Under the pieces are notes generated by a model. The model ran no database searches and had not been told where the DNA came from. It saw only the letters and a program-made list of their open reading frames with translations. Positions 5,020 through 50,070 of a stretch of 64,000 nucleotides of DNA are shown here, in pieces (the first letter of the stretch is position 1; every line of letters begins with the position of its first letter). The stretch is taken from sequence record NC_054911.1. One strand, written 5' to 3'. Origin of the DNA: Escherichia phage ECO4. Position numbers and translations under genes: made by a program.

Positions 5020-6644
<1,625 letters not shown>

Positions 6645-6645
<1 letters not shown>

Positions 6646-6893
6646 TGGAAGGTTTAATTGAAGCTATTAAATCAAACGACCTCGTAGCCGCTCGTAAATT
6701 ATTTGCTGAAGCCATGGCTGCAAGAACGATTGATTTAATTAAAGAAGAAAAAATCGCTATCGCTCGTAATTTCTTAATTGAAGGTGAAGAACCTGAAGAC
6801 GAGGATGAAGATGATGACGAAGATGGTGATGATAAAGACGACAAAAAAGACAAAGACTCTGACGAAGATGACGAAGACGAGGATGATGAATAA
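6645..6893 (+). CDS. 67: prohead core protein gp67 with acidic C-terminal tail
   Basis: 82 aa, Asp/Glu-rich C-terminus; position between 20 and 68. Confidence 0.8.
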
Positions 6894-10463: not shown

Positions 10464-11747
10464 ATGGCTAAAATCAACGAACTTCTGCGCGAATCAACCA
10501 CAACGAATAGCAACTCAATCGGTCGCCCAAATCTCGTTGCTTTGACTCGCGCTACCACTAAATTAATATATTCTGACATTGTAGCAACGCAAAGAACTAA
10601 TCAACCTGTTGCTGCTTTTTATGGTATCAAATACCTTAACCCAGACAATGAATTTACATTTAAAACTGGTGCTACTTATGCTGGCGAAGCTGGATATGTA
10701 GACCGAGAACAAATCACAGAATTAACGGAAGAGTCTAAATTAACTCTTAATAAAGGCGATTTATTCAAATATAATAATATCGTTTATAAAGTATTAGAAG
10801 ATACACCATTTGCTGATATTGAAGAAAGTGATTTAGAATTAGCTCTTCAGATTGCAATTGTTCTTTTAAAGGTTCGTCTATTTTCTGACGCAGCGTCAAC
10901 AAGCAAATTTGAAAGCTCTGATAGTGAAATTGCGGATGCTAGATTCCAGATTAATAAATGGCAAACCGCAGTTAAATCTCGTAAACTTAAAACTGGTATC
11001 ACAGTTGAATTAGCACAAGATTTAGAAGCAAATGGATTCGATGCTCCTAATTTCTTAGAAGATTTGCTTGCAACTGAAATGGCAGATGAAATCAATAAAG
11101 ATATTCTGCAGTCTTTGATTACAGTATCAAAACGTTATAAAGTTACAGGAATTACTGATACTGGATTCATTGATTTGAGTTATGCATCTGCACCTGAAGC
11201 TGGTCGTTCATTATACCGAATGGTATGTGAAATGGTTTCGCATATCCAAAAAGAATCAACTTATACAGCAACGTTTTGTGTTGCTTCAGCTCGTGCCGCT
11301 GCGATTCTTGCTGCATCTGGTTGGTTAAAACATAAACCAGAAGATGATAAATATCTTTCACAAAATGCCTACGGGTTCTTAGCTAATGGTTTACCGCTTT
11401 ATTGCGATACTAACAGCCCATTAGATTATGTAATCGTTGGCGTAGTAGAAAATATCGGTGAAAAAGAAATTGTTGGATCAATTTTCTATGCTCCGTATAC
11501 AGAAGGTCTCGACTTAGATGACCCTGAACATGTAGGTGCATTTAAAGTTGTTGTTGATCCAGAAAGCTTACAACCGTCTATCGGTTTATTAGTTAGATAT
11601 GCTTTATCTGCAAATCCTTATACCGTAGCAAAAGATGAAAAAGAAGCAAGAGTAATTGATGGTGGAGACATGGATAAAATGGCGGGTCGTTCAGATTTGT
11701 CTGTTTTATTAGGTGTTAAGCTACCAAAAATTATTATCGATGAATAA
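10464..11747 (+). CDS. 24: capsid vertex protein gp24
   Basis: 427 aa as in T4 gp24; follows gene 23. Confidence 0.9.
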   Translation: MAKINELLRESTTTNSNSIGRPNLVALTRATTKLIYSDIVATQRTNQPVAAFYGIKYLNPDNEFTFKTGATYAGEAGYVDREQITELTEESKLTLNKGDLFKYNNIVYKVLEDTPFADIEESDLELALQIAIVLLKVRLFSDAASTSKFESSDSEIADARFQINKWQTAVKSRKLKTGITVELAQDLEANGFDAPNFLEDLLATEMADEINKDILQSLITVSKRYKVTGITDTGFIDLSYASAPEAGRSLYRMVCEMVSHIQKESTYTATFCVASARAAAILAASGWLKHKPEDDKYLSQNAYGFLANGLPLYCDTNSPLDYVIVGVVENIGEKEIVGSIFYAPYTEGLDLDDPEHVGAFKVVVDPESLQPSIGLLVRYALSANPYTVAKDEKEARVIDGGDMDKMAGRSDLSVLLGVKLPKIIIDE

Positions 11748-11752
11748 AACAA

Positions 11753-11778
11753 AGGGACCTTTCGGTCCCTTTTTATTT
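11753..11778. terminator. bidirectional terminator between convergent gene 24 and rnlB
   Basis: AGGGACC-TTTC-GGTCCCT hairpin flanked by A-run upstream and T-run downstream. Confidence 0.75.
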
Positions 11779-12781
11779 AGCTCACCAACTCAATCCAAGC
11801 CGGACGAAGTACATCTTGTACCATTTTAACTAATTCCTTTTTAATCAAAGAAGGATTATCTGCTTGAGTTAGAGTAATACCTTCACGAGAAGTTTCTTCC
11901 AAAATATCTTGGACAGTTAGCCCCATCACCTTTCCAAAATCCTTTGGACCAATTTCGCCAATTTTAGAAATAACGTTATTTACTCGGTTCAGTGTAACGT
12001 AACAAGCTAAAATTCCCACCAATTTGTTATCAGCTTCTGACAATTCAACTTTAGCTTTAATAGGCTTATCAGACTTTTTCTTTTCACTAAATTTAGAATT
12101 CTTGCATTTGATGGCTACACGATTGCGATTAGGCAGCCAAGAAGGCTAACAAGGTTTCAATACATATCCTTCAGCGGTAAATACTTCGCCTTTGGCTTCG
12201 GCATTCCAAACGCATTTATTTGCATCAACTAATCCAGCATGGTCTACTGTAAAATTATAATCTTGGACGACAGAATCTAAATCATTTGGCAATTTAATAA
12301 GCTCTTCAAATTTACCGCGACCTAAAAGTGGAGCCATTTTAAATTTAAATGTATTGCAGAATGATTCCATCATATAATCATCGACATAAGTCACGTCACC
12401 ACTTTCTGTAGTGACAATAATGTCAAATACATAAAAATCTTTATCACCATAATCAACATTCTTCTGAATGCCAGGTCCAGCGAATTCGCCAAAAACTTGA
12501 TAAGTCACAACAGCTGAAGTTTCCATAATATCTTGTACTGCTTTAATGGAATCAGCGTAATTCTTTAGAATAATTTCATACCCAAAGAAATCTTCAGCAG
12601 GAAGAATCGGTCCAGTACGTTTAGCGCAAGTTACTTTATCACGCTCAATAATCAATGAGAAATTTGTGCCGTGAATCTTTTCACGAGCTACCCATTCGCC
12701 GCCAGTCAATCCCAAGCTATAAAGTTTTTCAATAAATTTAGAGTTGTAATGATTTTCAAGACTGCTATACTTTTTAAACAT
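11777..12781 (-). pseudogene. rnlB: RNA ligase 2 (rnlB) interrupted by an in-frame TAG at 12146..12148
   Basis: N-terminal 211-aa ORF (KIHG nucleotidyltransferase motif) and C-terminal 88-aa ORF are in one frame separated only by a TAG; read through gives 334 codons. Confidence 0.75.
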
Positions 12782-13327: not shown

Positions 13328-13355
13328 CAAAATGAAGAAAGGGGCCGAAGCCCCT
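13328..13355 (-). terminator. rho-independent terminator downstream of hoc
   Basis: GGGGC-CGAA-GCCCC hairpin followed by T-rich run on the minus strand. Confidence 0.65.
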
Positions 13356-13360
13356 TTCGA

Positions 13361-14779
13361 TTATGGATAAGTATAGATGATACCAGTTTCTAAAGCAGTT
13401 TTATGGATGATGTATCCATTACGTGATTCTTGAACATCAACTTCTGGATAATCTTTCATCATCTTCTGAAGCGTATAACGATGCAAGTAGTACTTACTAT
13501 CTGGATCTTCAGTTTTCCAATCTTTACCTTCTTCAGTCATTTTTTGGATTTCATCCATAACCCACCAACCGCACCAGATATAAGCTGAAGTACGATGTGG
13601 AAGAGGATGAACATAAGGCAATTCACCTTCTGGTTCCGGAGCAACTTTATCAGTTACCTGAACTTGACCTGTTGTTTTAACTGTTTTGCTATCATAGTCA
13701 GTTGCTGTAACGACAGCAGTAACTTCAATAGTTTGACTTCCAACAGATGAGGTATCAACAGTATATACGTTAGTTGACCCTTCTACAGGAGAAGAATCTT
13801 TCTTCCATGAGTAAGTAATTTGTGCTTCTTCTGGAGCATCCGTAACATTAGCAGTAAATGTAGCCGAAGCATCTTGCTGAACGTTAATAGAAGGAGGAGT
13901 CAATGTAACCTGTGGATTCATTGTCTTCTTATTAACTGTCAATGATACTTCATTAGAAGTAACTTCCTTTTCATTGTAATTTTCTGCTGTTACTTGGGCT
14001 ACGCATTTAATTCTTTTTACTCCACTTGTAGTTGGAGTATAGCTAAATGTAGAGCTAGTTTCTCCACCAACTTGTGAATCATCTACATACCACTGATACG
14101 TAGCAGATGCTCCATCAGGTTGAGAAGCTAAGGCAGCAGTAAATTGAACTGGGGTTCCAATTACTCCAGCTGAAGGACTAGCAGGAGTTACTGCCAATGT
14201 AGTTGTCTGTGTCTTTTTATTAACAGTCAGTGATACTTCATTAGAAGTAACGGTTTTTTCATCATAATTTGTCGCGGTTACTTGAGCTACACACTTGATT
14301 TTTTTAACTCCGCTTGCGGCAGGAGTGTAATTGAATGTAGCAGAAGTCGCTTCGTCTACAGGAGAACTGTCAACGTACCATTGATACGTAGCAGATGCAC
14401 CTGATGGCTGCGAAGCTAAAGCAGCGGTAAATTTAACAGCTGTTCCAATTACTCCTGCTGGAGGACTATTGGGAGTTACGGCTAAGGTAGTCGTCTGAGT
14501 TTTGTTTTTGACTGTGATAGTTGTAGTAGCTTCTGCTGTTTCAGCTTCAGATTCTGGAACTGTATTTGTTGCAACAACTTTAATAGTCTTTTGACCAGCA
14601 GGACCTTTTAATACATAATCAAAAGTTGCTTCAGACCCATCTTGTGGAGCATTATCTACACTCCAAGCATAAGTAATAGTTCCACCTCCAGTTTCACCAC
14701 TAGGTGCAGCAGTAAACTGCTTGGTTTCATCAATAACTCCTGACGGTGTTTTAGGAGTTATATCAACTGTAAAAGCCAT
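13361..14779 (-). CDS. hoc: Hoc outer capsid decoration protein, four Ig-like domains plus C-terminal capsid-binding domain
   Basis: 472 aa; conserved C-terminus (YIWCGWWVMDEIQ...); four roughly 95-aa Ig-like units, two of them near-identical. Confidence 0.9.
   Translation of the reverse strand: MAFTVDITPKTPSGVIDETKQFTAAPSGETGGGTITYAWSVDNAPQDGSEATFDYVLKGPAGQKTIKVVATNTVPESEAETAEATTTITVKNKTQTTTLAVTPNSPPAGVIGTAVKFTAALASQPSGASATYQWYVDSSPVDEATSATFNYTPAASGVKKIKCVAQVTATNYDEKTVTSNEVSLTVNKKTQTTTLAVTPASPSAGVIGTPVQFTAALASQPDGASATYQWYVDDSQVGGETSSTFSYTPTTSGVKRIKCVAQVTAENYNEKEVTSNEVSLTVNKKTMNPQVTLTPPSINVQQDASATFTANVTDAPEEAQITYSWKKDSSPVEGSTNVYTVDTSSVGSQTIEVTAVVTATDYDSKTVKTTGQVQVTDKVAPEPEGELPYVHPLPHRTSAYIWCGWWVMDEIQKMTEEGKDWKTEDPDSKYYLHRYTLQKMMKDYPEVDVQESRNGYIIHKTALETGIIYTYP
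13928..14509 (-). repeat. tandem direct repeat of about 291 bp x 2 inside hoc (approximate ends)
   Basis: Two adjacent, diverged copies encoding KKTQTTTLAVTP...YQWYVD...EVSLTVN. Confidence 0.8.
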
Positions 14780-26502: not shown

Positions 26503-26556
26503 TCCTCATGTTATGTCAGTAAGACTACTATAACACAACACGAGGGACTTGTAAAC
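26503..26556 (-). promoter_or_regulatory. early-type promoter/leader cassette, copy 1 of an exact 54-bp repeat
   Basis: Minus strand GTTTACA - 17 nt - TATAGT with TGn, then leader ending in GAGGA RBS; identical to 41827..41880. Confidence 0.6.
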
Positions 26557-28613
26557 TACATTTTGAACTTTTTAGACATTCCGTTGATGTTAACCAAAGA
26601 AGCTAAGATTTGAGAAACTTCGTTTTCCTCTTCTTTTGATTCTTCTACAAGGAATTGATTAAATCCAGCCATTGGACGAACTTCACCAGTTTCCATTAGA
26701 TGGTCGCCATCATATACTGATTCTTCTAATTGTTCAGAAGGAGGAACGATTGTACCTTCGATTAGATACTTGTTATAAGCAGTTTCTTTCATAAAGTAAG
26801 TACTTACTTTATTAATCTTCAGTAAAATTCCACGTGGTAGAATAACTTCAGCTTCTGATGGAAATCCTGACAAATGACCTGGAACGATAACTTTAACTCG
26901 TTCAGCTCCTTTAATTACCATACCCACGCTAGTTTCAGCATCTTCATTAGCATATGTAGAATGACTACCCATATGCATCAAATCTTCTGCATCAACGGAA
27001 CCTTCTCCTTCACCAGAAAATACTGCTCCGGAATCATCTAAGGCCATATAATTTTTACCATACTCACCAAAGATATTTGGTTTAAGTGATGTAGATACGA
27101 AGTTCTTGAAATAGAACATTTTATTTTCAATGTTATGACGCAAAGTTTTAAAAGTAACTTCTTGTCCACGGTAAAGTGTAGTTCCTGGAGGAAGAACTGA
27201 ACCTTTAGCAAACGCAGAATCCATAGTCTCGATGTGCTTAATAGCGCGCTCCATGTATTCTTCACGTGTAGAATCAGGTTTACCTAAAAGGAATGAGTTC
27301 ATTTCAACATACGAATCTGCACAATAATCTTCAATTACATCAGATTCAGCCTGAGTCAATCCTTTTGGAGTTACTTCAGTGCTTGCATATTCATACGCCT
27401 GAGCAGCGGATTCATCAATTAATTTATAAATGCCATTCATGACAAATTGAATAATAGCTGTCTTTTCATCTGGCGTAGCTTTAGAACCTTTAACTAAATC
27501 ATTGACAATTTTCTTAATAACATCAAAGCTATTAGAAATATTAATGTCAGCAAGATCGCTTAAAATTTTATCAGTTTTATAATCAAAAAATTCTTTATTC
27601 TTTAAATATTCTTGAGAACTTTGATATGTTATATCGCTCTGCAACTTGATAGATGGATCACGTAAACGTGCATGGGCTAATGCAATATGATTTCGGAAGC
27701 TTTCTAGTTCATAATCACTAGATTTAAAACGAGAAGCACTCCTCATACCACCGATAGCTCCTTTGCCGAAGTTTGAACCAATCTGAATAACGCCAGAGTT
27801 CATTGGTCCTTCTGCTTTATATACCGGAACTTTAGATTCAAACTCTTGATATTTCTTAGCAGCAAAGCTATCACCCTGAAGTGAAGCATCAACAGTAGAA
27901 TATTGAGCTTGTGCTGCTAATCGACGACTAATTTTAGTTTTCTGAATAACAGCTTGATCCGTACGCTTATCATTTTCTAAAGCAATAGAAGCAGCAACTG
28001 CGACAGCTTTAGGAACAGCATTACCTGTTTTAACGTCTACATAAACATCACCGACTTTCGATTCAACTTTTGTGAATAACTCAGTTGAAATAGGAGGTAC
28101 ACCTGGAATGTCTTCTAAATTGGCATTTTTACGGTAAACCATAATATATGCATATTTCTTATCATAGTCCCAGATTTCCTTTAAAAGAACATATCGACCT
28201 GCTCCTTTAGTACGTACTAAACGGTCAGCAATAACTTGCATTTGACGAGCAGCGCCATTTGTTTTACTTTTTAGTACGCGGAATAGGCATGCATCAATTT
28301 TATACTGTTTCATTGTTTGAAGAGCAGTATCAAAAACCGCATTAATGACACCAATTGGATTTCCACCCAAATTTTTAAGCTTAACTAACGATAATTTCTC
28401 ATTAACACCTATCATTACGATATGCATCATTTTGTCGCCTGGCTTAACGTTTTTATTCGTATCACCGCCAGAGGTGTATGTACAAAATCGAAATCCAGGA
28501 AGAACGCTTTCTTCACCGGCTTGAATAGCAAAAATTTGAGGTATTTTATGCTTAGGATTTAAGTTAACAACCGGCGCCGAAGCGCCGTCAAATAATTCTG
28601 TAATAAGTTCCAT
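26556..28613 (-). CDS. Alt-family mono-ADP-ribosyltransferase, paralog A
   Basis: 685 aa; shared N-terminal region MELITELFD...; R-S-E type motifs (YRGQ, FVSTSL, EAEVILPRG). Confidence 0.85.
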   Translation of the reverse strand: MELITELFDGASAPVVNLNPKHKIPQIFAIQAGEESVLPGFRFCTYTSGGDTNKNVKPGDKMMHIVMIGVNEKLSLVKLKNLGGNPIGVINAVFDTALQTMKQYKIDACLFRVLKSKTNGAARQMQVIADRLVRTKGAGRYVLLKEIWDYDKKYAYIMVYRKNANLEDIPGVPPISTELFTKVESKVGDVYVDVKTGNAVPKAVAVAASIALENDKRTDQAVIQKTKISRRLAAQAQYSTVDASLQGDSFAAKKYQEFESKVPVYKAEGPMNSGVIQIGSNFGKGAIGGMRSASRFKSSDYELESFRNHIALAHARLRDPSIKLQSDITYQSSQEYLKNKEFFDYKTDKILSDLADINISNSFDVIKKIVNDLVKGSKATPDEKTAIIQFVMNGIYKLIDESAAQAYEYASTEVTPKGLTQAESDVIEDYCADSYVEMNSFLLGKPDSTREEYMERAIKHIETMDSAFAKGSVLPPGTTLYRGQEVTFKTLRHNIENKMFYFKNFVSTSLKPNIFGEYGKNYMALDDSGAVFSGEGEGSVDAEDLMHMGSHSTYANEDAETSVGMVIKGAERVKVIVPGHLSGFPSEAEVILPRGILLKINKVSTYFMKETAYNKYLIEGTIVPPSEQLEESVYDGDHLMETGEVRPMAGFNQFLVEESKEEENEVSQILASLVNINGMSKKFKM

Positions 28614-28616
28614 GAT

Positions 28617-30713
28617 TTATCCTTGAACGAACTTGTAAGGCATGTTTGTAATATCTATGCAAGACGCAATAATTCCAAGAGATGATTCTACTTTCTGTTT
28701 AACATTTGATGAAACAAATGATGCAAAGTCAACTCTATCTTCTATTTCAATATCACCTGTCATTGCAACTACTTCACCGGTTTCCATTAAATGGTCTCCG
28801 TCATAGATTACCGATTCGGTGAGCTCTTCCGTGGTCATAACTTCAGCTTGAATGAGTTTTGTATTATTAGATGTTGTTCCGTCATTATTAGAAGCATCAG
28901 TTATTTTATTAACTTTGACCATCAATCCACGCGGTAGAATAACTTCAGCTTCTGTTGCTATTCCGAGACTTCCTGGATATACAACATTAACTTTATGAGC
29001 TCCATCAATTGCCCATCCTATTTGAACTTTAACGTATTCAGGATTTTCTTTATACGCTCTTATTTCGTTTGGATTAATAGTTATTCCTTCTTCATTTTTA
29101 TCAACTGTTAATTCATTGCGAGCTTCTGGTTCTAAAAGACCAATACCAGCATGTGTGATTCCAAAACGTCCAAAAATGATAGGAGTTAAAGAAGTAGATA
29201 CAAAATTTCTGAAGTAGAACACTTTATTTTTAACTAACGCTTCATATATAGGAGCAGTCATACTTTGAGCACGATAAACTGTAATGCCTTCTGGTATACG
29301 GTCACCATTTTCAAAAGCTGAATCTAAGTTATTTATAGCAGATTCAATTTCTTTTTCACTCATTACATCATATCGTTCTGGATTGTAACGACCTAAAAGA
29401 AGATTATTGATGTCAGTATATCCTGAACCGCAATATTCTCTAATGCCACGCTTTTGTGATGGAGTATATTTAGAACCATCGCGGGCAATAGTAATATCAA
29501 TCATTGGACCAGCACCAATTCCAGAAAAACTGTAAATCATTCGTTTGAGGAATTTAGTTTTTGCTGCGTTCCAGGAATTTTTAGTTATTTCTTCCCAGAC
29601 TTCATCTGGTTGTCCTTTACGATTTTTATTATGATTAGCAAGCCATTTATCTTTATAATCTTCAAAGAATTGATTTACAGCTGCTGCGTATTTCTCTAAA
29701 CATTTTATTGAAGTAGTTGGTTCATTTTTAATTGCATTAAAAATTACTTCTTTAATTTTTTCTGAAACTTCACCGACTTGACTCATTGGAAAGAATTTAT
29801 AATCATAGTGAAGTTCATCTGCCGTTCCTTCAGCAATAATTTTTGCTGCCTTTGTTTTAGAAGCTAATGAATTAATTCCAATTTTCATTTCTTCTGCTTC
29901 GGGAATTAAAGGTGCAGTAGCTGGTTTATTAAAATTAGCTGCTGTAGATTCATACTTCTGGAATAATTCACTTTCAAATCTAGAAGATTCCAATGACTGA
30001 CTTTGTGCAATTGCTCTACGGGAAATTTTAACTTTAACGATTACGGCTTGGTCAGAACGTTTATCATTTTCTTGTGCAATAGATGCAGCAATTGCCTCAT
30101 TTTTGGTTACTTGAGCTCCAGTATCTTTATTGATATAAACATCACCGACCTTCGATTCAACTTTAGTAAAAAGCTCGGTGCTAATTTCTGGAACTCCTGG
30201 AATGTCTTCTAGTGATACATTTTTACGATGTATAAGAATATATGCATACTTTTTATCGTAATCCCAGAGTTCCTTAAGAAGGACGTATCTGCCACCTGAA
30301 CGACTGCGGATGAGTCTATCAGCAATAAGTTGAATTTGTCGAGCTTGACCGGCGGTTTTAGACTTAAGAATACGAAGCATGCAGGCATCAATTTTATATT
30401 GACGCATTGTTTGCATTGCAACAGTAAAAACTGAATTGATATAATTAATCGGGCTTGGACCAAGACCTTTTAATTTAGCAATTGAACCTTTAGCAGTTAA
30501 TGTAAAAGGAACAATGTGCATCATTTTATCGCCCATCTTTAAATCACGATTAGTATCACCTCCAGATGTATAGGTACATAAACGAAAGCCTGGTTGTTCA
30601 ATTGCATCATCAACATGAACTGAAAAAATTTGTGGTATTTTCTTCTTTGGATTTAAGTTTGTAATCGGAAGAGTAGTATCTTCGTCAAATAATTCTGTAA
30701 TGAGTTCCATCAT
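28617..30713 (-). CDS. alt: Alt-family mono-ADP-ribosyltransferase, paralog B
   Basis: 698 aa; same N-terminal and catalytic motifs (YRAQ, FVSTSL, EAEVILPRG), diverged middle; which copy is the alt ortholog is not resolved. Confidence 0.85.
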   Translation of the reverse strand: MMELITELFDEDTTLPITNLNPKKKIPQIFSVHVDDAIEQPGFRLCTYTSGGDTNRDLKMGDKMMHIVPFTLTAKGSIAKLKGLGPSPINYINSVFTVAMQTMRQYKIDACMLRILKSKTAGQARQIQLIADRLIRSRSGGRYVLLKELWDYDKKYAYILIHRKNVSLEDIPGVPEISTELFTKVESKVGDVYINKDTGAQVTKNEAIAASIAQENDKRSDQAVIVKVKISRRAIAQSQSLESSRFESELFQKYESTAANFNKPATAPLIPEAEEMKIGINSLASKTKAAKIIAEGTADELHYDYKFFPMSQVGEVSEKIKEVIFNAIKNEPTTSIKCLEKYAAAVNQFFEDYKDKWLANHNKNRKGQPDEVWEEITKNSWNAAKTKFLKRMIYSFSGIGAGPMIDITIARDGSKYTPSQKRGIREYCGSGYTDINNLLLGRYNPERYDVMSEKEIESAINNLDSAFENGDRIPEGITVYRAQSMTAPIYEALVKNKVFYFRNFVSTSLTPIIFGRFGITHAGIGLLEPEARNELTVDKNEEGITINPNEIRAYKENPEYVKVQIGWAIDGAHKVNVVYPGSLGIATEAEVILPRGLMVKVNKITDASNNDGTTSNNTKLIQAEVMTTEELTESVIYDGDHLMETGEVVAMTGDIEIEDRVDFASFVSSNVKQKVESSLGIIASCIDITNMPYKFVQG

Positions 30714-35455: not shown

Positions 35456-35469
35456 TTTATTCTCCTTTG

Positions 35470-35512
35470 TTTGTGTAAGATAATACTATCACAAAGGAAC
35501 CATACTGTAAAC
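35470..35512 (-). promoter_or_regulatory. early-type promoter with overlapping stem-loop
   Basis: Minus strand GTTTACA - 17 nt - TAGTAT with TGn; inverted repeat TTTGTG/CACAAA. Confidence 0.5.
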
Positions 35513-35542
35513 AACTTTGTGCAATCTTTGGAAAATAAAAAA

Positions 35543-35562
35543 AGGACTCCCGAAGGAGTCCT
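35543..35562 (-). terminator. rho-independent terminator
   Basis: 8-bp stem AGGACTCC/GGAGTCCT with CGAA loop, followed on minus strand by TTTTTTTTATTTTC. Confidence 0.8.
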
Positions 35563-35566
35563 CAAC

Positions 35567-35743
35567 TTATGCTTTCTGCTTACCAAAACGAGAAGCATCA
35601 TCTCGAAGAACCGCACGTGCTCGGCGCATGATCTTCTCAACAGTTTGATTGATACGAGAGTTCGACCCACGCTTGTAACCAGCGCGTTTAGAATCACCAA
35701 CTTTCTTTTCAACTGCTTTCTTTGCTTTAACTTGTTTTGCCAT
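35567..35743 (-). CDS. small basic protein, 58 aa
   Basis: ATG at 35743 (MAKQVKAKKAV...); Lys/Arg-rich; followed by the terminator. Confidence 0.5.
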   Translation of the reverse strand: MAKQVKAKKAVEKKVGDSKRAGYKRGSNSRINQTVEKIMRRARAVLRDDASRFGKQKA

Positions 35744-48193: not shown

Positions 48194-48505
48194 TTACACC
48201 GCCATCTTTCCTTTAATTGGCGGGTGAGATACATAGTTGTTAAGAACAAAATTATGCGGCTTTGCGAATTGACTCAACCAAAATACCTGTGATTCTGTAC
48301 CCCATTCATCGAATTCATCTGGAAATTTTAATTGCAATTCGCATAAATCCATAGGTTCACGACGCAAAATTTCTTTACATTGTTCTACGTGATTCATATA
48401 GATATGAGTATTACCACCAGAAAATATCAAATCTCCCGGAATAAGATTACACATCTTAGCTACAATATGAACTAACGTAGCATATGATGCAATATTAAAT
48501 GGAAG
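48194..48505 (-). CDS. td: thymidylate synthase, exon 2
   Basis: Encodes LPFNIASYATLVHIV...; preceded by intron 3' end ...ACATAATG. Confidence 0.9.
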   Translation of the reverse strand, partial: LPFNIASYATLVHIVAKMCNLIPGDLIFSGGNTHIYMNHVEQCKEILRREPMDLCELQLKFPDEFDEWGTESQVFWLSQFAKPHNFVLNNYVSHPPIKGKMAV

Positions 48506-49521
48506 CATTATGTTCAGATAAGGTCGTTAATCTTACCCCGGAATTATATCCAGCTGCATGTCACCATGCAGATCAGACTATATCTCCAACTTGTTAAAGC
48601 AAGTTGTCTATCGTTTCGAGTCACTTGACCCTACTCCCCAAAGGGATAGTCGTTAGGCATTTATGTAGAACCAATTCCATTTATCAGATTTTACACGATA
48701 AGTAACTAATCCAGACGAAATTTTAAAATGTCTAGCTGCATCTGCTGCACAATCAAAAATAACCCCATCACATGAAATCTTTTTAATATTACTAGGCTTT
48801 TTACCTTTCATCTTTTCTGATATTTTAGATTTAGTTATGTCTGAATGCTTATGATTAAAGAATGAATTATTTTCACCTGAACGATTTCTGCATTTACTAC
48901 AAGTATAAGCAGAAGTTTGTATGCGAACACCGCACTTACAAAACTTATGGGTTTCTGGATTCCAACGCCCGTTTTTACTTCCGGGTTTACTGTAAAGAGC
49001 TTTCCGACCATCAGGTCCAAGTTTAAGCATCTTAGCTTTAACAGTTTCAGAACGTTTCTTAATAATTTCTTCTTTTAATGGATGCGTAGAACATGTATCA
49101 CCAAACGTTGCATCAGCAATATTGTATCCATTAATTTTAGAATTAAGCTCTTTAATCCAAAAATTTTCTCGTTCAATAATCAAATCTTTCTCATATGGAA
49201 TTTCTTCCAAAATAGAACATTCAAACACATTACCATGTTTGTTAAAAGACCTCTGAAGCTTTATAGAAGAATGGCATCCTTTTTCTAAATCTTTAAAATG
49301 CCTCTTCCATCTCTTTTCAAAATCTTTAGCACTTCCTACATATACTTTATTGTTTAAAGTATTTTTAATCTGATAAATTCCGCTTTTCATAAATACCTCT
49401 TTAAATATAGAAGTATTTATTAAAGGGCAGTCCTACAATTTAGCACGGGATTGTCTACTAGAGAGGTTCCCCGTTTAGATAGATTACAAGTATAAGTCAC
49501 CTTATACTCAGGCCTCAATTA
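48506..49521 (-). mobile_element. group I self-splicing intron in td (1016 nt)
   Basis: 5' junction TTCTTGGGT|TAATTGAGGCCTGAGTATAAGGTGACTTATAC and 3' junction ACATAATG|CTT recognised as the T4 td intron; carries I-TevI. Confidence 0.9.
48653..49390 (-). CDS. I-TevI intron-encoded GIY-YIG homing endonuclease
   Basis: 245 aa; N-terminal GIYQIKNTLNNKVYVGSA... GIY-YIG domain. Confidence 0.9.
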   Translation of the reverse strand: MKSGIYQIKNTLNNKVYVGSAKDFEKRWKRHFKDLEKGCHSSIKLQRSFNKHGNVFECSILEEIPYEKDLIIERENFWIKELNSKINGYNIADATFGDTCSTHPLKEEIIKKRSETVKAKMLKLGPDGRKALYSKPGSKNGRWNPETHKFCKCGVRIQTSAYTCSKCRNRSGENNSFFNHKHSDITKSKISEKMKGKKPSNIKKISCDGVIFDCAADAARHFKISSGLVTYRVKSDKWNWFYINA

Positions 49522-50070
49522 ACCCAAGAAAACATCTACTGATCGTTGATACCACTGCAAATCCAAATAGCCATTACGCACATTAAACTGATAGAACATA
49601 TGACAGGGCGGTAATGCCATTTGATTGATTTCAGCTGGATTCCATGCAGAAACAATTTGACGCCTATCATTTGGCAGTTTTTTAATACGATCAATAACTT
49701 CTATAATTTGATCTACACCGCCAAAATCACGCCACTGTTTTCCATAAATTGGACCAAGTTCACCGCTATGGTATCCTAAATCTTTTGCTTGATTTTCGTA
49801 ATTTTCATCCCAGACTGTTTTGCCTTGAATTAATGAATCGTGCTGAATTAATCGTAAATCATTGACATTTGTGCTTCCTGATAAAAACCAAAGCAGCTCA
49901 GCAATGCAAGCTTTCCAGGCGAGCTTCTTAGTTGTTACCGCAGGAAAACCTTTAGTTAAATCCCAGCGTAATTTAGTACCAAACAAAGCAATTGTTCCTG
50001 TGCCTGTTCGGTCATCGGTTTCATAGCCATTTTCAAAAATGTCTTTAATTAAATCTTGGTATTGTTTCAT
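49522..50070 (-). CDS. td: thymidylate synthase, exon 1
   Basis: 183 codons ending ...QRSVDVFLG; exon 1 plus exon 2 give 286 aa. Confidence 0.9.

Follow-up and report, generated by a model that had tools for sequence, protein, structure and literature searches.

Results

The rnlB locus of phage ECO4

We analysed a 64,000-nucleotide stretch (the window, 64 kb) of the 168,638-bp genome of Escherichia phage ECO4 (NC_054911; PMC11670814). The genes around rnlB follow each other as in T4, with gene 24 succeeded by the convergent rnlB, 24.2, 24.3, hoc and inh. The features at the locus, in window coordinates, are as follows:

11777..12781, minus strand: complete frame of rnlB (RNA ligase 2, Rnl2; T4 gene 24.1), 334 codons plus TAA, interrupted once; assigned from its translation, the match to T4 Rnl2 and the alignment with relatives
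12146..12781, minus strand: 5' open reading frame including the TAG, 211 aa, 23.9 kDa, with motifs I-IV and without motif V; ASZ77301.1 / YP_010068411.1
12146..12148, minus strand: amber codon TAG at codon 212, where relatives have TAT (Tyr212); A>C at position 12146 of the plus strand
12101..12109, minus strand: motif V codons 225-227 (AAA TGC AAG; K225, C226, K227), downstream of the stop and untranslated
11777..12145, minus strand: 3' part of rnlB, codons 213-334 plus TAA, intact and with zero private amino-acid changes
11777..12043, minus strand: 88-aa open reading frame with a TTG start; ASZ77300.1 / YP_010068410.1; carries the T4_Rnl2_C domain (Pfam PF18043, residues 2-76)
11751..11772, no strand assigned: bidirectional intrinsic-terminator hairpin between the convergent genes 24 and rnlB, directly after the rnlB stop codon

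The reverse complement of 11777..12781 reads as a single frame of 335 codons (334 sense positions and the terminal TAA) with one internal stop, in the context ...GGA TAT GTA TTG AAA CCT TGT TAG CCT TCT TGG CTG CCT AAT CGC... The 211-aa and 88-aa open reading frames share this frame, with no indel between them. Read through, the protein matches T4 Rnl2 over residues 1-334 (phmmer against PDB 2hvq, E = 8e-224), and at the DNA level the gene is 96.2% identical to T4 rnlB. Because the flanks on both sides of the TAG align end to end with T4 Rnl2, the split frame is no chance arrangement, and full-length homology to T4 Rnl2 places the read-through frame in the Rnl2 family. The two proteins align over all 334 positions and, besides the stop, differ at three amino acids (T93S, P217R and R219G); the T4 residue opposite the stop, at position 212, is tyrosine (KPC-Y-PSWL). 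The likeness to T4 Rnl2 (gene 24.1/rnlB; PDB 2HVQ/2HVR/2HVS, 1S68) extends to the gene position between gene 24 and 24.2/24.3/hoc and to the Pfam pair RNA_ligase and T4_Rnl2_C, whereas the encoded ECO4 product ends before motif V and is devoid of the C-terminal domain.

A preliminary description of this DNA had identified the gene as rnlB, given it these coordinates, this local sequence and a length of 334 codons, joined the 211-aa and 88-aa open reading frames into one frame with a lone in-frame amber and no indel, and anticipated products of 24 kDa and 37 kDa. All of this agrees with our analysis, the calculated masses being 23.9 kDa for residues 1-211 and 37.6 kDa for full-length Rnl2. Loss of protein similarity downstream of the TAG, which the same description had named as evidence that would speak against it, is not seen, as the alignment runs to residue 334.

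A second terminator lies upstream of rnlB at 13337..13358. With terminators on both sides, rnlB is the last gene of a 24.3-24.2-rnlB unit, and a premature stop in it therefore cannot be polar on other genes. In the neighbouring hoc (13361..14779, minus strand), the predicted protein has 472 aa in ECO4, 474 aa in AR1 and 376 aa in KMB40, G157lw, KIT03 and ESH35; these lengths are consistent with one additional repeat unit, and the 472-aa translation is visibly repetitive. In SfPhi01 and ACG-C40, hoc is annotated as two CDSs.

The ECO4 record lists both halves of rnlB as separate "RNA ligase" CDSs, and an exact-sequence look-up finds the 211-aa and 88-aa products each on one contig only, that of ECO4. 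No ribosome-binding site was obvious by eye before the TTG of the 88-aa open reading frame, which is probably not expressed by itself.

The stop falls inside the nucleotidyltransferase domain

In Rnl2, the nucleotidyltransferase domain comprises residues 1-243 and the C-terminal domain residues 244-329, and K225 and K227 of motif V are both required for enzyme adenylylation (PMC3149579). In ECO4, the codon for the adenylylation lysine K35 (12677..12679, minus strand) is upstream of the TAG and the motif V codons are downstream of it. On the intact protein, the Pfam RNA_ligase match covers residues 29-226 (model positions 2-170 of 171) and the T4_Rnl2_C match residues 246-322; on the 211-aa product, RNA_ligase reaches model positions 2-157 of 171 only. 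The preliminary view that the TAG truncates the protein after the nucleotidyltransferase domain is thus contradicted by the domain limits (PMC3149579) and by Pfam, which put the cut inside domain 1-243, between motifs IV and V. The accompanying statement that the C-terminal domain is removed does stand, PF18043 being present only in the separate 88-aa open reading frame or in the read-through frame. The encoded product is accordingly no single polypeptide with nucleotidyltransferase motifs I, III, IIIa, IV and V (K35...K225/K227), and no PF18043 domain is joined to its nucleotidyltransferase domain. The locus is the rnlB gene, but what it would encode, judged from the translation, is an incomplete Rnl2.

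A useful comparison is Rnl2(1-249), the "truncated Rnl2" laboratory enzyme (PDB 1S68), which is likewise an N-terminal fragment without the C-terminal domain. This isolated N-terminal domain keeps the whole nucleotidyltransferase domain with K225 and K227 (PMC3149579) and is competent in steps 1 and 3 (PMC3884662). The ECO4 fragment, in contrast, is 38 residues shorter and without motif V, and such activities would not be expected of it. Since it lacks K225 and K227 of motif V together with the C-terminal domain, the 23.9-kDa fragment is predicted to be inactive and the allele to be null; we expect the fragment to be catalytically dead, and it is probably unstable as well.

The TAG is private to ECO4

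In a gap-free alignment, codon 212 is TAT in the rnlB genes of SfPhi01, AR1 and ESH35 and TAG in ECO4, in line with the first of the codons (TAT/TAC, CAG, TGG etc.) that had earlier been named as possibly replaced, to be settled by such an alignment with close relatives. The change from TAT to TAG is a single T>G transversion on the coding strand, and it is private to ECO4 against five relatives. The ECO4 gene is 99.2-99.6% identical in DNA to those of SfPhi01, AR1 and ESH35, the best matches reaching no higher because the phage collection that was searched (50,697 records) does not contain ECO4 itself. Putting Tyr212 back yields a 334-aa protein that matches, at every residue, the Rnl2 of Shigella phages ESH35/Sf23, which is known from 11 contigs. 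Zero amino-acid changes have therefore accumulated since the stop arose, and the event must be very recent.

The distribution of the allele was assessed with a 55-mer carrying the variant base at position 28, such that every 28-base megablast seed must span the variant. The TAG form was found in none of the 50,697 phage records, while the TAT control was found in 451. Exact-pattern scans likewise returned the TAG form from no IMG/VR contigs, no JGI metagenome contigs and no GTDB genome contigs, and the TAT 24-mer control from 5 metagenome contigs and 4 IMG/VR contigs. A TAG allele in circulation is rejected by these zero counts in the phage records, IMG/VR and the metagenome and genome contigs searched, obtained beside positive TAT controls; the TAG allele is private to ECO4.

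Sequence quality and the possibility of an error

An allele that is unique to one deposited record, in a conserved gene that nearly all relatives have unbroken and that otherwise equals an intact circulating allele, might be a sequencing, base-calling or consensus error, in which case the real phage would carry TAT and an intact rnlB. The nature and place of the change fit this reading too, as a transversion belongs to the rarer class of private changes in ECO4 (8 of 62, see below) and the changed base adjoins C residues, which are modified in T-even DNA. Such modification of C can disturb some base-callers.

We therefore looked at the quality of the assembly at two scales. First, every AR1 open reading frame of at least 45 aa was compared with the window by tblastn. 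In this comparison, no credible annotated gene in the 64 kb other than rnlB has an internal stop, the remaining internal-stop matches being short antisense or off-frame open reading frames; genome-wide recoding and a low-quality assembly are both rejected on this ground. Second, private substitutions, defined as positions at which ECO4 differs while AR1, KMB40, G157lw, KIT03 and ESH35 all agree, were collected over window positions 1-24000. Among the 62 found, 54 are synonymous, 6 are nonsynonymous (located in hoc, inh and uvsY.-1), one is the rnlB nonsense change and one, at an indel edge, is unclassed; by type, there are 54 transitions and 8 transversions. From gene 17 to gene 24, all 42 private changes are synonymous. 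Random errors in rnlB would be expected to be about 21% synonymous, 74% nonsynonymous and 4.8% nonsense. The pattern of private changes reads as real divergence filtered by selection, not as sequencing noise.

An error at the one decisive base would thus have to sit in an assembly that is otherwise without noise, with no other credible gene in 64 kb carrying a stop, and in a gene for which an independent nonsense allele, that of phage ACG-C40 described below, demonstrates that such alleles exist. We consider an error unlikely, though it is the best placed of the alternatives. The base is inferred to be real in the phage stock, its origin lying either in nature or in laboratory propagation.

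Two further private differences from the five close relatives were met in this part of the window. One is a 9-bp in-frame insertion in the prohead core gene 67 (6860..6868); the other is a deletion of about 98 bp around 18161, which removes the 3' terminus of uvsY.-1 together with the spacer next to it (uvsY.-1 / uvsY.-2 region). Separately, a small AR1 open reading frame (ar1_214/ar1_215 region) matches the window at about 35460..35712, minus strand, in two different frames, a sign that a short hypothetical gene differs by a frameshift.

Possible suppression or read-through of the TAG

The TAG might instead be decoded, by a host supF-type tRNA, by a phage tRNA-Tyr whose anticodon has changed from GUA to CUA, or by natural read-through, such that full-length Rnl2 is made. 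The lost codon is a tyrosine codon, and relatives such as AR1 encode tRNA-Tyr(GUA); AR1 has 10 tRNAs, the tRNA-Tyr lying at 10678..10764 on its minus strand, and one anticodon change in such a tRNA would give back the exact wild-type protein. The 122 codons downstream of the TAG are perfectly kept, and TAG is a rare terminator in the window, ending 4 of 83 non-nested open reading frames (TAA 56, TGA 23), with alt as the only credible gene that ends in it.

Against this, the window contains no tRNA gene, the ECO4 tRNA cluster lying outside it, and the one-step supF-like CUA form of tRNA-Tyr is present in 0 of 50,697 phage records and on 0 IMG/VR contigs, against 402 phage records with the GUA form, which many Tequatroviruses encode. 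By comparison with AR1 open reading frames, no other gene of the 64-kb window has an in-frame TAG, and the stop at codon 212 is conserved in no relative, whereas a recoded stop would be conserved in relatives or recur in other genes. The kept downstream sequence is explained equally well by a recent mutation. A phage-borne supF-like tRNA-Tyr(CUA), absent from the phage records and IMG/VR contigs searched, is rejected as a candidate, with the tRNA genes of ECO4 itself lying outside the window; and a gene-60-style hop over the TAG is dismissed because the next TGT after the take-off codon is, as read by eye, out of frame. Overall, we regard decoding of the TAG as very improbable.

Disruption of rnlB in other phages

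A split rnlB occurs in none of the 120 records listed (the 60 best matches and 60 evenly spread ones), and 33 of 35 IMG/VR loci have rnlB intact. ESh34 and GiZh, which carry no annotation under the match and were considered as disrupted, were rejected, since both genes are intact and merely unannotated.

A clean second case is found in Escherichia phage vB_EcoM_ACG-C40 (NC_019399), whose rnlB (5532..6536, minus strand, 1005 nt) has an independent TGG>TGA change at W215 without an indel; its annotation consists of two RNA ligase CDSs and a misc_feature. Like ECO4, this is a natural Tequatrovirus isolate in which an rnlB of the same length is broken by one in-frame stop, with no indel, and entered as two CDSs; unlike ECO4, the stop is an opal at W215, on another allelic background (LHNGNR, against LPNRNR in ECO4). 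The event in ECO4 is an ordinary one, with a precedent in ACG-C40.

More distant homologues and fragments show further irregularities. The two remaining IMG/VR loci, L037 and L041, with rnlB at 1001..~1998, have frameshifts at about codons 207-227 and 91-98, respectively, which may reflect either genuine disruption or sequencing errors in homopolymers, and in the metagenomic fragment P0012 the reading frame switches immediately after W215. The metagenomic rnlB variants P0021 (272 aa, JGI) and P0030 (80 aa, ENA) have an unrelated 68-aa N-terminus (MNGLDTNQNGLNYQYIDLNN...) in place of the first ~130 rnlB residues, suggestive of an insertion into the gene, or a replacement within it, in some T4-like phages. 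These two, together with several metagenomic C-terminal fragments, point to further rnlB lesions.

The closeness of the clean cases raises the idea that positive selection in some hosts favours phages whose Rnl2 is lost or cut short near codons 212-215, as defence escape or because a motif I-IV fragment is useful. The ECO4 amber at Y212 and the ACG-C40 opal at W215 are independent and stand 3 codons apart, for which the probability with two random nonsense changes is about 0.025, a post hoc figure with n = 2; the P0012 frame change after W215 and the L037 frameshift between codons 207 and 227 fall nearby, and residues 216, 217 and 219 rank with the most variable positions across 23 distinct close sequences. 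Yet there are two clean cases only, a coincidence spotted after the fact, and the fragments were found via protein clusters, which may bias their positions. Lesions also lie elsewhere, at about codons 91-98 in L041 and, as several C-terminal fragments imply, further upstream. Residues 216-219 vary no more than residues 71-76 do, and we read the stretch beside the stops as a putative tolerant segment between motifs IV and V. A literature link of phage Rnl2 to a defence trigger or to a role in vivo was not found, papers on "rnlB" mostly concerning the unrelated E. coli RnlB antitoxin. That truncation at codons 212-216 recurs through selection in particular hosts, for example as escape from a defence that senses or exploits the ligase, is a long shot, and positive selection for loss or for the fragment in the broader form given above is, if anything, a slightly longer one.

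Other features of the window

A 1016-bp insertion (48506..49521) interrupts the thymidylate synthase gene td between exons at 49522..50070 and 48197..48505. The insertion carries a 245-aa open reading frame (MKSGIYQIKN..., 48653..49390, minus strand), which we take to be a GIY-YIG, I-TevI-like protein, and looks like a T4-type td group I intron. Rfam, at gathering thresholds, matched nothing in the window, the presumed intron included. The td gene of AR1 is uninterrupted; protein identity to it is 98% for exon 1 and only 68% for exon 2.

Two alt (ADP-ribosyltransferase) genes, each coding for about 685 aa, lie in tandem at 26556..28613 and 28620..30713 on the minus strand; as paralogues they share only about 41% identity. 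Identity to the AR1 counterpart is 98.5% for the first copy and only 72% for the second; the first copy is the one that ends in TAG.

Discussion

We interpret the rnlB locus of ECO4 as carrying, most probably, a recent, lineage-private nonsense change of Tyr212 from TAT to TAG in an accessory gene, which gives a null allele. In the sequence of events that we envision, a T>G transversion would turn the tyrosine codon into TAG; translation would then end after residue 211, leaving a 23.9-kDa fragment with K35 and motifs I-IV and without motif V and the C-terminal domain; and the fragment would be inactive, so that the phage would be null for Rnl2, a loss that would be tolerated and would leave other genes unaffected.

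The tolerance has a basis in what is known of the gene. T4 rnlB is listed as non-essential and its knock-down is without fitness cost, the gene being scored as "Not Fit" by CRISPRi-ART (-0.30, p = 0.81; PMC11879866, supplement file 15). The loss would be borne because the phage can do without Rnl2 on ordinary laboratory hosts and rnlB stands last before a terminator. The established RNA-repair genes, rnlA and pseT, are unbroken within the 64-kb window, as is DNA ligase gene 30. A point against simple dispensability is that rnlB is intact in almost all relatives, from which it follows that the gene is normally under purifying selection and that its loss may have a cost in nature.

A decayed pseudogene would have several lesions, relaxed constraint or both, whereas the ECO4 gene has one lesion and encodes a protein otherwise identical to a circulating allele; what we see has the appearance of a nascent null allele rather than a decayed pseudogene. 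The preliminary description had left three options side by side, an amber allele, natural pseudogenisation of a non-essential gene, and a codon suppressed in the host. Recent loss of function of a dispensable gene is now favoured, pseudogenisation applies only in its earliest stage, with one lesion and no decay, and suppression is without support in the window and the collections searched. The allele also resembles the classical T4 am mutants and their supF/psu suppression, in that a lone sense codon, here one for tyrosine, has become TAG and could in principle be corrected by a tyrosine-inserting suppressor. The classical mutants, however, were selected in essential genes, where the laboratory amber of a T-even phage has a conditional-lethal phenotype, and are kept on suppressor hosts; rnlB is non-essential in T4, ECO4 was deposited as an ordinary isolate, and a suppressor was found neither in the window nor in the collections searched.

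For the annotation of T4-like phages, the two ECO4 "RNA ligase" CDSs are to be read as one disrupted rnlB and not as two ligases. What Rnl2 contributes biologically during infection is still not known (PMC3884662). Recurrent selection against Rnl2, should the improbable idea of it prove true, would offer a first handle on this long-unknown role. Taken together, our analysis presents ECO4 as a natural or stock-derived, putatively Rnl2-null T4-like phage, which may serve as a ready-made reagent for studying what Rnl2 does in vivo.
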